Positions 7,644 to 22,613 are shown, counted from the stretch's first letter. The stretch: 64,000 nucleotides of DNA from a virus (IMGVR_UViG_3300025723_000026:12301-76300); one strand, 5' to 3'. Numbers and translations are program-made. Notes: generated by a model from the letters alone, not told the origin.

Positions 7644-7717
7644 TGGAGCGGGTAGAGAGAATTGAACTCTCGCATCAAGTTTGGTAAACTCGCAGGCTAC
7701 CATTACATCATACCCGC
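7644..7717 (-). tRNA. tRNA-Gly(ACC), rare A34 anticodon
   Basis: Gly-type body GCGGGTA/TACCCGC, U73, CCA; arm CGAGT-TTACCAA-ACTTG. Confidence 0.9.
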
Positions 7718-9223: not shown

Positions 9224-9313
9224 TGGAGGAAGCTGAGGGATTCGAACCCTCGGAGGCGATAAAGCCTCGGTTGTTTAGTAAACAACTCTCTTAAACCGCT
9301 TGAGTAAGCTTCC
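9224..9313 (-). tRNA. tRNA-Ser(ACT), rare A34 anticodon
   Basis: Arm GTTGT-TTACTAA-ACAAC; long Ser-type variable arm; acceptor GGAAGCT/AGCTTCC; CCA. Confidence 0.9.
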
Positions 9314-18261: not shown

Positions 18262-19320
18262 TTAATAACCAGGTAGTTCCGGAAGATTACAAATTTGTTG
18301 AAATTTATCTCTTACAAGGTTGAACCCTTGCATGATGGTATTTTTATCACTTGTAGCTTTTTCTTCTGAAGCTTTATCCCGCTTTGAGCTTGAAAGATTT
18401 ACATCAGTTTTTGCTTTATAGATATCAAAAAATTTTGTAAGATATTCTGTTTCATTTTGATATTTGGAGAGAGTTCCTTTTCCAAACATATCATTATTAT
18501 AGAAACTTCTAGCAAGTCCCTTAATGCCCTTAATCAGTATTTCAATATCAACATCTTTTGGCTCTTTAGCAATGACACCTGGGTTTTGTATAAGAAGAGG
18601 GTCTGGTGTAGCGTTCTTAACTCCGTTTATTTCCGCTTCATGCTTAAAGATATCTAAAATAAACGAACGAATGCTTGCTGATGCCGTCTTTACTTCAACG
18701 TTTGCACCTCTTGTAGAGCGGAAAGGAGAGCGAACATTATCTTTTAATTTATATTGAGCGCCTGCATGCTGGATACTCATATCAAGAGTATCACCTAATA
18801 CGCTAAACATATTCCCGTATAGAAGTCCCTTTAAACCATGCTGTGGTGTTGTTCTCCACCTACCCCACTCTGCTGTGTCAGATGGATGAATAATAAGATC
18901 AACCTGAACGTAATCGTCACCGCTTACATGAAAAATTGGATGGCCTGAATTACCCTCAGAAACATCTCTTGGCTTGACGTCTTTAATAAATTGATCAAAC
19001 AGTCCCCACCAATAGGTCTGTGCTGCTGAAGGTGTTTTATGTGCTTCGTTTTTTGGAACAATGATTTGAAGATCTAAATCACCGTACGTCTTGTTTTCCT
19101 TGTCGTATTCATAATGTGCAGTACTACCAAGAGGAGACCCCATTTTAATCATTGGAATGCCATGTTTATTAGCATATAAATTAAATTGATCTATAAACTG
19201 TTTAACTTTTGGTAATACCATTCGTATAACTGAAGGGGTTATAACTGTATTTTGTGTTAAAGGAGAATCGTATCCGCCTTCATTTATCTGAGCATAAAAT
19301 TTACTGAACGTTAACGGCAT
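18262..19320 (-). CDS. Putative Pol-beta-fold nucleotidyltransferase
   Basis: LGS-x12-GDLDL and downstream VQVDL catalytic triad pattern; late promoter. Confidence 0.6.
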   Translation of the reverse strand: MPLTFSKFYAQINEGGYDSPLTQNTVITPSVIRMVLPKVKQFIDQFNLYANKHGIPMIKMGSPLGSTAHYEYDKENKTYGDLDLQIIVPKNEAHKTPSAAQTYWWGLFDQFIKDVKPRDVSEGNSGHPIFHVSGDDYVQVDLIIHPSDTAEWGRWRTTPQHGLKGLLYGNMFSVLGDTLDMSIQHAGAQYKLKDNVRSPFRSTRGANVEVKTASASIRSFILDIFKHEAEINGVKNATPDPLLIQNPGVIAKEPKDVDIEILIKGIKGLARSFYNNDMFGKGTLSKYQNETEYLTKFFDIYKAKTDVNLSSSKRDKASEEKATSDKNTIMQGFNLVRDKFQQICNLPELPGY

Positions 19321-19343
19321 AAAAAATATTTATGCTATTTTCT

Positions 19344-19383
19344 AAAAAAAGAAACCCCTATTACCTGATCAGGGCAATAGGGG
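19344..19383 (-). terminator. Intrinsic terminator ending the large ncRNA
   Basis: CCCCTATTG-CCCTGATCAGG-TAATAGGGG followed by TTTCTTTTTTT. Confidence 0.85.
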
Positions 19384-19869
19384 TGAGTTCGAACTCTGTT
19401 TTTCTATTTCTTTATCTCTCTGCATTTTAGGGAGAGCGACTCCTTTCCGGACTTGAGACCGGCAACTGGTAGCATTACTAAAGAAATTTGTGGTATTTGA
19501 AAAGCTTTTGTTCCGGAATTTGTTCTTTCCTCAACGGGACTCGGCATGGAGCCAAGTTTACCGTCCAGTCTGTGTTTACTAAAGCAAAGGATCAAAGCTG
19601 TATGTAAGTTTTTGGCTCCCCTTATGAAAATACGTCTACTAACATACCAACAGACAACTCAACGTATCTCTCCCACGGATTATACCTACAACGCGGGAAC
19701 TTAATTTATATGACTAGAAAACCTCATTCGTTTTCACGGAGATTTATCTTACAGGCTACACGTTCACTCGGCCGAATGCTTCGCTATCACCTATCGCGGG
19801 AGTCCTTTTGCATATCAGACTTGCGCCTAGTCAAATTTTTAAAATGTACTATCAAAGATCAATTCTTAT
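19344..19869 (-). ncRNA. Large (~520 nt) structured non-coding RNA candidate (ROOL/GOLLD-like class, identity unverified)
   Basis: No credible ORF; own promoter, boxA-like motif and terminator; helices TGACTAG/CTAGTCA, GGAGCCAA/TTGGCTCC, TCCCGCG/CGTGGGA, ATACGT/ACGTAT. Confidence 0.75.
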
Positions 19870-19875
19870 TCTTTT

Positions 19876-19904
19876 AATATAGTGACTGAATAAGGAAGTG
19901 GCAA
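19876..19904 (-). promoter_or_regulatory. sigma70-type promoter of the large ncRNA
   Basis: TTGCCA-N17-TATATT. Confidence 0.7.
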
Positions 19905-20061
19905 CTAGAAAATTTGTAAGTCTTTTTGTCCTGATAACTTGAAGCGTCCCTCATTATGTATCAGTTTTGTTATGACTTACGACGAACCGGTTCCATACAT
20001 ACAGCCTTTCGAACAGCTGTAGAGAGGGTTTTACCGATTTCTGTGAATTTATTTATATTTA

Positions 20062-20709
20062 TTAAAATGAATATCCAAGAGTTGTTTCGAGACCATTACC
20101 CTGATAATTCTGACCAAAGGCAGTAATGTATCTTGCTCCAAGCTCTACGTTCTTTGAAATTTTATAGGTTATACCAAACTTAAAGGTATTAACGAACGTA
20201 TCACCGTACTGTGAGTTAAGAGCGCTACCTGGATCATAACGTAGGAACGTGCTCCATCTTTCACTAAGCTTACGCTCAAGCTTAGCCTGCGCTAGCCAAT
20301 ATCCAACGTTAGGTGATGTTGGATCAGTATAGCTATAACCATCACCTAGACCACCACGAAGACTGAACTCCCAATCCTTACCAAGAGCCCATGTATATCG
20401 AAGCTTAAGCTCTGTATAACCATCGGTTTGTTGATCAGGTCCTGTTATACGTGAAGCACCGGTTTCAGCTTCTAGATCCCAACCATTCTTAAAGTTAGCA
20501 CCCATAGAGAGTTGCTCGGTATTGTTCCACTGGTACGGTCCCCATTGACCATCTGTTTTTGTACGCTGATACATACCTGTCCAGTGAGGCTCGATATTAT
20601 ATTCAATTGGTTCATTCGTACTGATGAGTACTACTTTGTTCGTGTCACCAGCGTAAGCAGCGACCGTGGTTAGCGTTGCGACGATTAGTACAATGTATTT
20701 GTTTTTCAT
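20062..20709 (-). CDS. Outer-membrane beta-barrel protein (porin-like)
   Basis: Signal peptide MKNKYIVLIVATLTTVAAYA; alternating aromatic beta-strands; C-terminal LGYSF BAM signal. Confidence 0.8.
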   Translation of the reverse strand: MKNKYIVLIVATLTTVAAYAGDTNKVVLISTNEPIEYNIEPHWTGMYQRTKTDGQWGPYQWNNTEQLSMGANFKNGWDLEAETGASRITGPDQQTDGYTELKLRYTWALGKDWEFSLRGGLGDGYSYTDPTSPNVGYWLAQAKLERKLSERWSTFLRYDPGSALNSQYGDTFVNTFKFGITYKISKNVELGARYITAFGQNYQGNGLETTLGYSF

Positions 20710-20729
20710 ATTTGTGTACGTGGGTTGAA

Positions 20730-21803
20730 TTACTTGATAAATGTAAAGGCAGCTGCGGTTGAAAGCAAAAGCAATACCCAAACACAAAGTGTTGAATAAT
20801 ATGTCCAAAGACTTGTCCCAAAATAGCGTTTACCAATAAGAACACATTCATGAAGCGGGGAGATAAGGTATCCGGCGTAATCCAGAGCAAAGAACCAGAG
20901 AAGATATTCTTTACCAAAGATCGTCGACATAAGGACGGTTAGTGCAGCGAACTTTCCATCAGATCCCATACTATACGAGGCGATAAATGTAATAATACTA
21001 ATTACAATAAAACCAACAGATGTGTGCATTGATACACCAAGATTCTTTACAGACGATTCAATCCAATCATGATGCTCTTGCATATAATCAGATAAGAAGA
21101 AGACAATACCAATTATCCAAATTGTATTCCAGTTAATATAGCTATTAAGTTTTTTGAGATTAAAATTCTTTGTTAGAATCAGATAATAAGCCATTAGCGT
21201 ACCAAATACCGTAAACACAGCCAATGGACCTTCACCACCTAGAAGAATGTACCCAACGATAGCTAGAAGAAACGGTACAACGTTCTTAATAAATCCAAGA
21301 ACATTAAATTTAGGTCTTTCGGTAATCTCTACTTCCTCTTCTTTAACATTAAACCAAATATAATAACCAATAAAGAGAGCAGAAACAGCAATTAACGGCC
21401 AGATCATTCCTAACCAAGCTGTATAACCGATAGAGAAAGCAGCCATCGGTAAAATAACAGGCTTCTCTAACGGTGACCACATATAGAAATGATGGGTAGT
21501 TAAGAAATCAACAATTCCTAGCTTTTTTCGACTTTCTGAATTCTCAGATTCATGATTAGTACAGTTACAATTTGATGTAGCTGTATCAAGAATTCCTGCT
21601 GATACTGTTGCTCTTCCTTCAATAGGAAGGATACCTGATACAAACGAAAGTAGAGATATAACTACTCGATTACTCTTAAACTTTGACTTTAGATATCCGT
21701 AAATATCCTGGAAGATGCCATGCTCTTTAATAGTTCCAGATACAATCATGATCGCAATGAGCACGAATAGATATATCTCGTCTTCTAGATATGACCAATT
21801 CAT
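20730..21803 (-). CDS. Multi-pass inner-membrane permease (ion-transporter superfamily, DUF401/ArsB-NhaD-like)
   Basis: About 10 hydrophobic helices; SGILPIEG and C-terminal SPLHEC....RYF motifs. Confidence 0.75.
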   Translation of the reverse strand: MNWSYLEDEIYLFVLIAIMIVSGTIKEHGIFQDIYGYLKSKFKSNRVVISLLSFVSGILPIEGRATVSAGILDTATSNCNCTNHESENSESRKKLGIVDFLTTHHFYMWSPLEKPVILPMAAFSIGYTAWLGMIWPLIAVSALFIGYYIWFNVKEEEVEITERPKFNVLGFIKNVVPFLLAIVGYILLGGEGPLAVFTVFGTLMAYYLILTKNFNLKKLNSYINWNTIWIIGIVFFLSDYMQEHHDWIESSVKNLGVSMHTSVGFIVISIITFIASYSMGSDGKFAALTVLMSTIFGKEYLLWFFALDYAGYLISPLHECVLIGKRYFGTSLWTYYSTLCVWVLLLLSTAAAFTFIK

Positions 21804-21930: not shown

Positions 21931-21951
21931 AAATTGGTGGAGGCGAGGGGA

Positions 21952-22157
21952 CACTTAATCTCTAGCTTTCGCTAAAGCGTGGACTATATCTTCACCCTCG
22001 CGGGTGTTGGATGCTCAAGCCGGTACTCCGGTAGTCTCTGCACCTTCCTATTTCTAGGCTCGGCTCAGTATTGCCATGTTGCTTTCGCAATTTAGGTTCC
22101 ACTGAATTCTTCCAATTTATACATTATCTATTGCTAGATAAGTCGACCTGCTTGTTG
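21952..22157 (-). mobile_element. Group I self-splicing intron (206 nt, no ORF) in the tmRNA T-loop
   Basis: P/Q/R/S cores AAATTGGAAGAA, AATACTGAGCC, GTGCAGAGACTA, AAGATATAGTCC; P1 TCGAT/GTCGA with U:G at the 5' splice site; terminal G; five GNRA hairpins. Confidence 0.93.
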
Positions 22158-22384
22158 ATCGAACCCCTGTGTTTATACTGTTACGTTAATATCTCTACAC
22201 GCTTAGATAAGTTTAGCATTTGATTGACTACAGGCTGCTATGGCTTACCGACCTATCTTTTTTAGTCTGCCTATTATAGTGAAGAGTCTACAACCACCCC
22301 CTGTACTATGTTTTCTAAGTATCACAGGTACTACTTTAACCTATTATTATTTCCAAAAGCTTAATAGGATCTGCTTCTGGTTCC

Positions 22385-22492
22385 TTAGGCTGCGATAGCG
22401 AGGGGAGCCATTTCGTCACAGAGACAAAACTCTGTAATTGTGTTGGCTGCCTTCTTTACCTTGGCAAGGATTGCGGAGACCTTAGTCTTTGC
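22385..22492 (-). other. tmRNA tag reading frame (35 codons)
   Basis: After TAAAT: AKTKVSAILAKVKKAANTITEFCLCDEMAPLAIAA-TAA. Confidence 0.85.
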
Positions 22493-22613
22493 ATTTATGT
22501 TTTAATCAGCTTTTATAGTGGCCAACTGATTAACCACTGCGTGCAATACTAATTTCGAGTATAAGTCGAAGCCAGTACGCCCCCAAAATTATTTATCAAA
22601 GAACAAAAATTAT

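Follow-up and report, generated by a model that had tools for sequence, protein, structure and literature searches.

The element at positions 19344-19904 of the window (the whole 64,000-nt stretch of viral DNA that was analysed) represents a real, recurrent and uncatalogued phage RNA family that is coupled to a divergent twister ribozyme. It is a modular stable-RNA operon, in which a four-way junction (module A′) is followed by a conserved core (module C), a twister ribozyme of type P1 and a terminator, and it is not one RNA of 520 nt. The operon model overall, with its leader, its independent modules, a module C that would pair with itself and a 3′ end that would be made by the twister, is given a probability of about 0.72.

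The window was taken from a 76.3-kb IMG/VR virus record, for which a completeness of 35% was estimated. The element is carried by a large, uncultured phage of the T4 type; one copy of module C is present in each of four related genomes that are 91-100% complete (170-218 kb), and a T4-type gp23 major capsid protein is encoded in three of these four complete relatives.

The original prediction had described a structured, separately transcribed non-coding RNA in a phage stable-RNA island, and this was borne out by the promoter, the terminator, the covariation and the tRNA/tmRNA context. Its view of a single RNA of ~520 nt did not hold up, as the modules are shuffled independently and, in three of the five clades, the 220-nt core occurs by itself with tRNAs on its flanks.

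Locus and transcription signals

The element, its flanking genes and the 21 tRNAs are all on the minus strand, and the following features were assigned:

19876-19904, minus strand: sigma-70-type promoter TTGCCA-N17-TATATT, a 10/12 match
19849-19862, minus strand: boxA-like leader motif TTGATCTTTGATAG, the sole exact match in 64 kb
19711-19833, minus strand: module A′, the variable domain at the 5′ end, whose four-way junction has TGACTAG/CTAGTCA as its closing stem
19488-19706, minus strand: module C, conserved double-pseudoknot core of ~220 nt (covariance model R1, 223 bits; 42 homologues)
19670-19699, minus strand: H1 hairpin of module C, 97% paired, with two-sided changes in 6 of 8 pairs
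19630-19667, minus strand: H2 hairpin, whose loop (19655-19646) pairs with 19575-19568 (pseudoknot 1, H3)
19585-19626, minus strand: H9 helix (19626-19620 with 19590-19585), which encloses the partner strand of pseudoknot 2
19533-19565, minus strand: extended hairpin of H5 and H6 (loop 19550-19546), bearing the invariant loop motif GGCUCCAUGCC
19499-19530, minus strand: H7 hairpin, a 20-nt A-rich loop with the palindrome UUCCGGAA (19518-19511), candidate symmetric kissing loop
19410-19483, minus strand: twister ribozyme, type P1, with a vestigial P3 and a small P5, assigned by the RF03160 match and covariation
19385-19396, minus strand: palindromic mini-hairpin of 12 nt that separates the twister from the terminator, visible in the sequence itself
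19344-19384, minus strand: intrinsic terminator with a 12-bp stem, a 7-nt loop and a T-run, the stem covarying between loci

The promoter that had been proposed is the top sigma-70 match within 16.5-22.5 kb, and its hexamers and spacing are kept in related loci; transcription is predicted to start at ~19869. The strong terminator was also confirmed, and the mini-hairpin that precedes it is kept in most loci of clades I and II.

The boxA-like motif was found in the leader as described, exact and unique in the window. Written as TG[AT]TCTTTGA[TCA]A, it has two occurrences in the 64-kb window, one in the leader of the non-coding RNA and one upstream of the tmRNA (22605-22594), where it ends 10 nt 5′ of the tmRNA start. 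The motif is invariant in the leaders of clades I and II. It is also found ahead of both RNAs in two other loci (L164 and L046), and in these loci and the window it is located ahead of stable-RNA units only. It appears to resemble the boxA of bacterial rRNA operons, and a role in antitermination is offered as a suggestion. In three other large viral contigs (L180, L200 and L211; 142-197 kb) the motif is present twice, 113-178 nt apart, and these doubled motifs may be further stable-RNA leaders.

A tmRNA-like 5′ end (GGGGGCG...) is located at 22584 on the minus strand, just after the boxA-like motif at 22605-22594, and a group I intron was identified with Rfam at 22184-21960. The region 21935-22605 on the minus strand, where a tmRNA was called by neither ARAGORN nor Rfam, fits an intron-split tmRNA. 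Between the tmRNA and the RNA operon, at 20062-21803, there are two genes of cell-envelope type with an ORF overlap of 79 nt; the first encodes a membrane protein similar to DUF401/citrate transporters and the second has a weak match to an outer-membrane beta-barrel. Elsewhere in the window, ARAGORN called tRNA-Gly(ACC) at 7644-7717 and tRNA-Ser(ACT) at 9224-9313, both with a wobble A that is uncommon in bacteria and phages.

The element was said to lack a credible ORF, and we agree: no ORF of more than 63 codons is present between promoter and terminator, none is conserved in the alignment of homologues, and the sole notable frame is stopped in relatives. A small peptide starting from an ATG in the invariant loop was considered and rejected, with its frame open here and stopped in clade II. 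The downstream ORF (19320-18262) begins 24 nt past the T-run of the terminator and had no tblastn match among 50,697 phage records. Its homologues in L002-L005 have neither this RNA nor a tRNA adjoining them, so the ORF and the RNA are not considered to be linked.

Taken as single sequences, neither the body (z = -0.89) nor the 3′ part (z = -0.53) folds with an energy that stands apart from shuffles, therefore the case for structure was built on the comparison with relatives. A pairing between leader and tail, which appears in the minimum-energy fold, was not supported, the tail segment being deleted in several relatives.

Homologues and modular organisation

The first homologous loci were found with an exact 17-mer from the ribozyme, and more were recovered by nhmmer screening of loosely matched loci; two loose 16-base patterns gave mostly chance matches and were useful only after this screening. 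A specific degenerate pattern for the core detected 27 viral loci, 39 metagenome loci and 1 true locus in the genome collection. After removal of duplicates and truncated copies from the pattern, nhmmer and covariance-model searches, 42 distinct copies of module C were retained, falling into five clades. All 42 come from contigs of uncultured phages or metagenomes, and every copy is located within a tRNA/tmRNA island. Module C has no match in Rfam 15, and blastn of the element and of the clade III and V cores against 50,697 GenBank phage records returned none. Twister is not mentioned in a published catalogue that covers ~10,000 candidate structured RNAs of viruses (PMC10690425).

From the alignments, the locus is arranged as a promoter and leader, an optional tRNA-Met(CAU), a 5′ module, an optional module B (~110 nt) and module C. 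The twister, the 12-nt palindromic hairpin and the terminator come after module C in clades I and II, with a tRNA-like insert ahead of them in two loci. The 5′ module is one of two unrelated types, A′, which is the one present in this element, or A, and in either case the closing stem starts with UGAC. Among close relatives the 5′ modules can be swapped, doubled or replaced by a tRNA, and whether A or A′ is present does not depend on the clade to which module C belongs. This makes the transcript a string of cassettes and not a single co-evolving molecule.

In module A′, 39 predicted pairs were followed across 8 homologues, and 5 of these pairs show compensatory changes. The long-range helix TGACTAG/CTAGTCA, one of those originally proposed, is real and closes this 5′ domain, with TGACCG/CGGTCA or TGACAG/CTGTCA as its counterpart in module A. 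The middle hairpin of module A′ carries a GGCC tetraloop (19773-19770), which is UGCA in L216; this palindromic GGCC/UGCA tetraloop is a weaker hint of a second self-contact site.

Structure of module C

Comparison of the 42 copies supports a fold of module C into seven covarying helices, two of which would be pseudoknots. When the copies were realigned with covariance model R1 (alignment A2), the 43-pair model that was tested showed 90.0% pairing, compared with 75.9% in shuffles and 36-46% when the partners were slid. The alignment contained 272 compensatory cells vs 97 in shuffles, although with 42 copies in five clades there are fewer independent events than these counts suggest. The covariation score was 0.452 vs 0.199 in shuffles, and two-sided changes were seen in 26 pairs.

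Pseudoknot 1 (H3) is 99.4% paired, and three of its adjacent pairs occur in five compensatory combinations. Pseudoknot 2 joins the H1 loop (19689-19684) to 19609-19604. Its partners are GUAGG/CCUAC, GCAGC/GCUGC, GUAGC/GCUAC or AUGAC/GUCAU depending on the clade, with both sides switching together. The duplexes formed within a clade have energies of -7.3 to -9.6 kcal/mol; when strands of different clades are combined, 10 of 12 values are only 0.3 to -5.2. Counted by column, pseudoknot 2 is 88.8% paired vs 82.8%; this modest difference can be explained by misalignment of the loops between clades. When the clades were folded separately, the segment enclosed by H9 was closed by a helix in all of them, although the helix sequence differed, and the three core pairs of H9 are 89.7% paired with AU/GC exchanges. 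H5 is 100% paired, and the closing pair of H6 (columns 174/186) is formed in 42/42 copies by four pair types. The 11-mer loop motif GGCUCCAUGCC above these helices is invariant in all copies of module C. An alternative pairing, UUGGU/GCCAA, fails in part of clade III.

Two more of the proposed long-range helices can be placed on this fold. TCCCGCG/CGTGGGA is real and covaries. ATACGT/ACGTAT is also real and covaries, but the G:U-rich stem that it was thought to enclose is paired as in shuffles (86.7% vs 87.4%); the 5′ strand of this stem takes part instead in the pseudoknot with 19575-19568, which is 99.4% paired. A further helix, GGAGCCAA/TTGGCTCC (19612-19619 with 19548-19555), can be read in the sequence but had no support from covariation, with 82.8% pairing vs 81.0% in shuffles. 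As it would destroy the covarying H6 hairpin, it is regarded as a competing pairing.

The invariant GGCUCCAU together with the GAGGAAAG of this copy is reminiscent of the core of RNase P. This identity was rejected, since GAGGAAAG is unconserved and is one strand of the covarying H7 stem, and no RNase P model matched at E <= 10.

The palindromic loop of H7

A perfect Watson-Crick palindrome of 6 nt is found at the same columns of the H7 loop in 41 of the 42 copies, and the sole exception is palindromic when G-U pairs are allowed. The next-best window for palindromes elsewhere in the alignment reaches 38%. Six variants were seen: UCCGGA, ACUAGU, CCUAGG, UCUAGA, CUCGAG and CGGCCG. Self-duplexes of the loop have energies of -9.5 to -15.7 kcal/mol and duplexes between variants only -0.1 to -5.7, so the loop would be expected to prefer partners of its own lineage.

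Adjacent bases of a palindrome are unable to pair with each other within one loop. A palindrome that switches and remains a palindrome points to a symmetric loop-loop contact between two copies. Switching of this kind supported the intermolecular kissing loops of OLE and GOLLD that were seen by cryo-EM (Kretsch et al., 10.1101/2024.12.08.627333). From the comparison of the aligned loops, module C probably self-associates through such a contact of H7. Pairing of the H7 loop with P4 of the twister, both of which have UCCGGAA, was also considered; it was rejected because ACUAGU loops are found beside unchanged P4 stems, without co-variation.

A divergent twister ribozyme

The 3′ 74 nt belong to a known family, the twister ribozymes, which the original prediction had missed. 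The RF03160 (twister-P1) model matches 19481-19412 over its full length (1-68) with 32.4 bits and an E-value of 5.8e-5, under the gathering threshold of 67.2. Pseudoknots are not scored by this model, which also penalises the P5 insert, the lack of a P3 and the bases exchanged in pairs. At the gathering score, the whole window contains Rfam matches to tRNAs and a group I intron only.

We conclude from its match and its covariation that the 3′ part folds as a genuine twister, in which both tertiary pairs carry an exchange specific to this lineage. The type-P1 order is kept, with P1, P2 and P4 present and covarying, and the minimum-energy fold of the 3′ part also gives P1, P2, P4 and P5. Among the 20 distinct variants, P2 is UGC/GCA or UAC/GUA (the second pair being GC in 18 and AU in 2), P4 occurs as seven different stems and P1 also covaries, while P5 has three compensatory pairs in L012. 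Here P1 consists of five A-U-rich pairs and P3 is down to a few bases. The CTCTC/GAGAG pairing that had been proposed is located within the twister; the strands are present, but they are used differently there.

The two tertiary pairings, T1 and T2, connect the loop of P4 with strands that flank P2; their bases were assigned after the twister crystal structures, and this assignment is presumed to apply here. On this assignment, T1 has A-U and C-G in 20/20 variants, where the consensus has G-C, and T2 pairs CUC with GAG (18 variants, U-A as the exchanged pair) or GGG (2 variants, U-G), where the consensus has CCC/GGG. The departures from the consensus are thus four bases that form two complementary pairs (GCC/AAGCC to ACC/AAGUC, and CCC/GGG to CUC/GAG). 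The core bases UAA (19477-19475), AAAA (19428-19425) and G19420-A19419 after P2′ are kept. Cleavage is predicted between U19477 and A19476, with G19420 as the predicted catalytic base. Twisters are described as having two pseudoknots and cleaving at U-A, with P1 being dispensable (PMC6154101).

Compact twisters (~54-60 nt) with the identical CUC/GAG and A-U exchanges were found in unrelated viral contigs (L016 and L025), which indicates that this twister subtype is wider than the module C family.

Genomic context and formation of the 3′ end

A tRNA is located within 0-5 nt of module C, upstream, downstream or on both sides, in clades III-V and in L024, and none of these tRNA-adjoined copies has a twister. 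In clades III-V, which are three of the five, module C stands by itself between tRNAs. A twister follows module C in 24 of the 25 copies of clades I and II, where there is no downstream tRNA, and in none of clades III-V. Where tRNAs adjoin module C, its ends would be made by tRNA-processing enzymes (RNase P and tRNA 3′ processing). The exclusion between twister and downstream tRNA suggests that the twister is the most likely maker of the 3′ end of module C in the other clades. The simplest reading of these contexts is that the twister would act as a portable 3′-end maker, which by its predicted cleavage would remove the terminator and leave a cyclic phosphate.

Circularisation by RtcB was considered and was not supported, as five related records (four of them 91-100% complete) contained no RtcB, matches to RNA ligases were inconsistent and there was no 5′ ribozyme.

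Other modules were seen in the same region. In clades III and IV, a conserved folded module of ~110-120 nt is found at the position of the twister, before the next tRNA (L060 1400-1512, L243 1843-1956 and six more). It has 22 predicted pairs, 9 of them compensatory, and a hairpin loop CUCUUAACAAU; one copy is just below the Rfam cut-off for abiF. In L278 and L261, module C and the twister are separated by an insert of ~100 nt, which resembles a tRNA in its acceptor, D and T arms but contains a long internal insertion and was not called by ARAGORN. In G001, the complete 218-kb relative (L009 1880-2204), the only twister is 6 kb from module C. It is located ~140 nt past an ORF of 321 codons, in the 3′ untranslated region and ~70 nt before a terminator, and this placement indicates that the twister-then-terminator cassette is also used on mRNA.

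Proposed mechanism and alternative explanations

In the operon model, the sigma-70-type promoter would direct an untranslated transcript of ~525 nt from the minus strand. The boxA-like leader could recruit host Nus factors and so spare this long untranslated RNA from early termination, as in rRNA operons. The pseudoknots of module C would tie its first two hairpin loops to downstream strands, and two copies could then join through the 6-8-nt palindrome of H7, giving a symmetric dimer or a larger assembly. Cleavage by the twister at U19477/A19476 would release an RNA of ~393 nt (leader, A′ and C) ending in a 2′,3′-cyclic phosphate, with a ribozyme-plus-terminator piece of ~130 nt as by-product. 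The twister would in this way replace tRNA-processing enzymes at the 3′ side of module C in clades I and II.

Placement in a phage tRNA/tmRNA island, as for ROOL and GOLLD, would suit a single ornate RNA of that class, ~520 nt long and working as one molecule. So would the presence of a single promoter and a single terminator, a loop that is self-complementary as in the GOLLD and OLE assemblies, and the palindromic A′ tetraloop (GGCC/UGCA), with which the whole precursor could assemble. This explanation is nevertheless quite unlikely, because the ROOL and GOLLD models give no match up to E <= 10, close relatives differ in the kind and number of their 5′ modules or have a tRNA instead, module C stands by itself between tRNAs in clades III-V, and the 3′ part is a predicted self-cleaving ribozyme. 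Still less credence is given to the idea that there is no RNA gene at all and that the region is a long regulatory leader of the ORF at 19320-18262, or decayed coding or mobile DNA. The start of this ORF is indeed only 24 nt after the T-run, but a strong terminator separates it from the element, its homologues in L002-L005 have no such RNA next to them, and the RNA travels with tRNAs and not with the ORF. Covariation that includes G-U pairs also fits a minus-strand RNA only, which makes this last explanation very improbable.

The two inferred activities of the RNA have alternatives of their own. The twister-like motif could be a relic, or a regulated or inactive ribozyme, in which case the RNA would end at the terminator with the 3′ part attached. 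Retention of all core positions, including the A of the cleavage site and the catalytic G, makes this unlikely, as do tertiary pairs held by paired changes, helices that covary in 20 variants, and the occurrence of the twister just where a downstream tRNA processing site is missing. The relic explanation draws on the Rfam score under the cut-off, on a terminator that already sets a 3′ end, and on a weak P1 and a nearly missing P3; that P1 is reported to be dispensable for cleavage (PMC6154101) speaks against it. Similarly, palindromes are classic sites for dimeric proteins, and the H7 loop could be bound by such a protein, or be a site at the DNA level, without any RNA-RNA contact. A protein site would be expected to keep its sequence, whereas six palindromes are found at one loop position; the stem that supports this loop shows covariation of an RNA kind, G-U pairs included, the self-duplexes are stable and specific to each variant, and the identical pattern is seen at the proven intermolecular loops of OLE and GOLLD (10.1101/2024.12.08.627333). 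We therefore consider a protein or DNA site improbable and prefer the loop-loop contact between two RNAs.

Whether module C should be regarded as a new class of self-assembling phage RNA, with a lineage-specific kissing loop and ends that come from either the tRNA machinery or a dedicated twister, is a more tentative proposal, to which we give less than even odds. As a guess, the mature RNA could be a self-assembling RNA or an RNA-protein particle that acts on the tRNA or translation machinery of the host.

If this new-class proposal is true, the twister would gain a defined natural job, which is to provide a stable RNA with a 3′ end capped by a cyclic phosphate. To our knowledge, the natural roles of bacterial and phage twisters are largely unknown, and the context described here offers a testable one: freeing a structured stable RNA from its terminator where no downstream tRNA serves. 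Module C would also be a compact and tractable relative, in spirit, of ROOL and GOLLD within T4-type phages, and its 220 nt put it within reach of direct structural studies of RNA-only assemblies.

Comparison with known systems

The ribozyme shares with twister-P1 (RF03160) the order of P1, U-A site, P2, P4 with an 8-nt loop, optional P5, A-rich strand, P2′, G-A and P1′, as well as the two tertiary pairings and a predicted cut at the 5′ edge, which would leave ~7 nt on the upstream RNA. It differs in that one pair of each pseudoknot is exchanged (A-U for G-C and U-A for C-G) and P3 is reduced. Its location between a structured phage RNA and a terminator is also different, suggesting a concrete job.

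The loop of H7 can be compared with the DIS kissing loop of HIV-1, a 9-nt hairpin loop with a purine-flanked 6-nt palindrome that is lineage-specific and specifies self-pairing. The H7 loop is longer (20 nt vs 9) and belongs to a phage non-coding RNA, not to a genome; no role in packaging is implied.

Membership of the ROOL or GOLLD class, as originally suggested, was not supported, as neither matched at E <= 10 within 19200-20100 or at the gathering score over the window. OLE and RNase P, which were to be checked in Rfam as well, were likewise without a match at E <= 10, and the ROOL and GOLLD models had no match at E <= 1 in six related loci. Like ROOL and GOLLD (10.1101/2024.12.08.627333), the element is encoded by a phage close to tRNA islands, contains pseudoknots and has no assigned function, and it has palindromes that switch and remain palindromic, from which symmetric kissing loops are predicted here. 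It differs from them in having no similarity in sequence or covariance model, in the size of module C (~220 nt vs ~580-800 nt) and in the tRNAs or ribozyme that flank it.

Stable RNAs that adjoin tRNA genes are also found in T4 itself, where the tRNA operon finishes with rnaC and rnaD (species 1 and 2); these are presumed to be released by tRNA-processing enzymes and have no assigned function. These RNAs are 119-139 nt long, with no known twister or palindromic loop. When R1 was run with filters off on T4 66-76 kb, its best score was 11 bits in a coding region, with none at rnaC or rnaD; as R1 recognises neither, the likeness is positional only. Module C joins the unexplained stable RNAs of T4-type tRNA operons, and provides a richer comparative way into rnaC and rnaD.

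A parallel for the ribozyme is given by the HDV-like theta ribozymes, which adjoin phage tRNAs and have been proposed to mature tRNA ends (PMC10879173). In both cases a small self-cleaving ribozyme adjoins a phage stable RNA whose end it is proposed to mature, but the ribozyme family is a different one, and the substrate is a tRNA there and a large structured RNA here.
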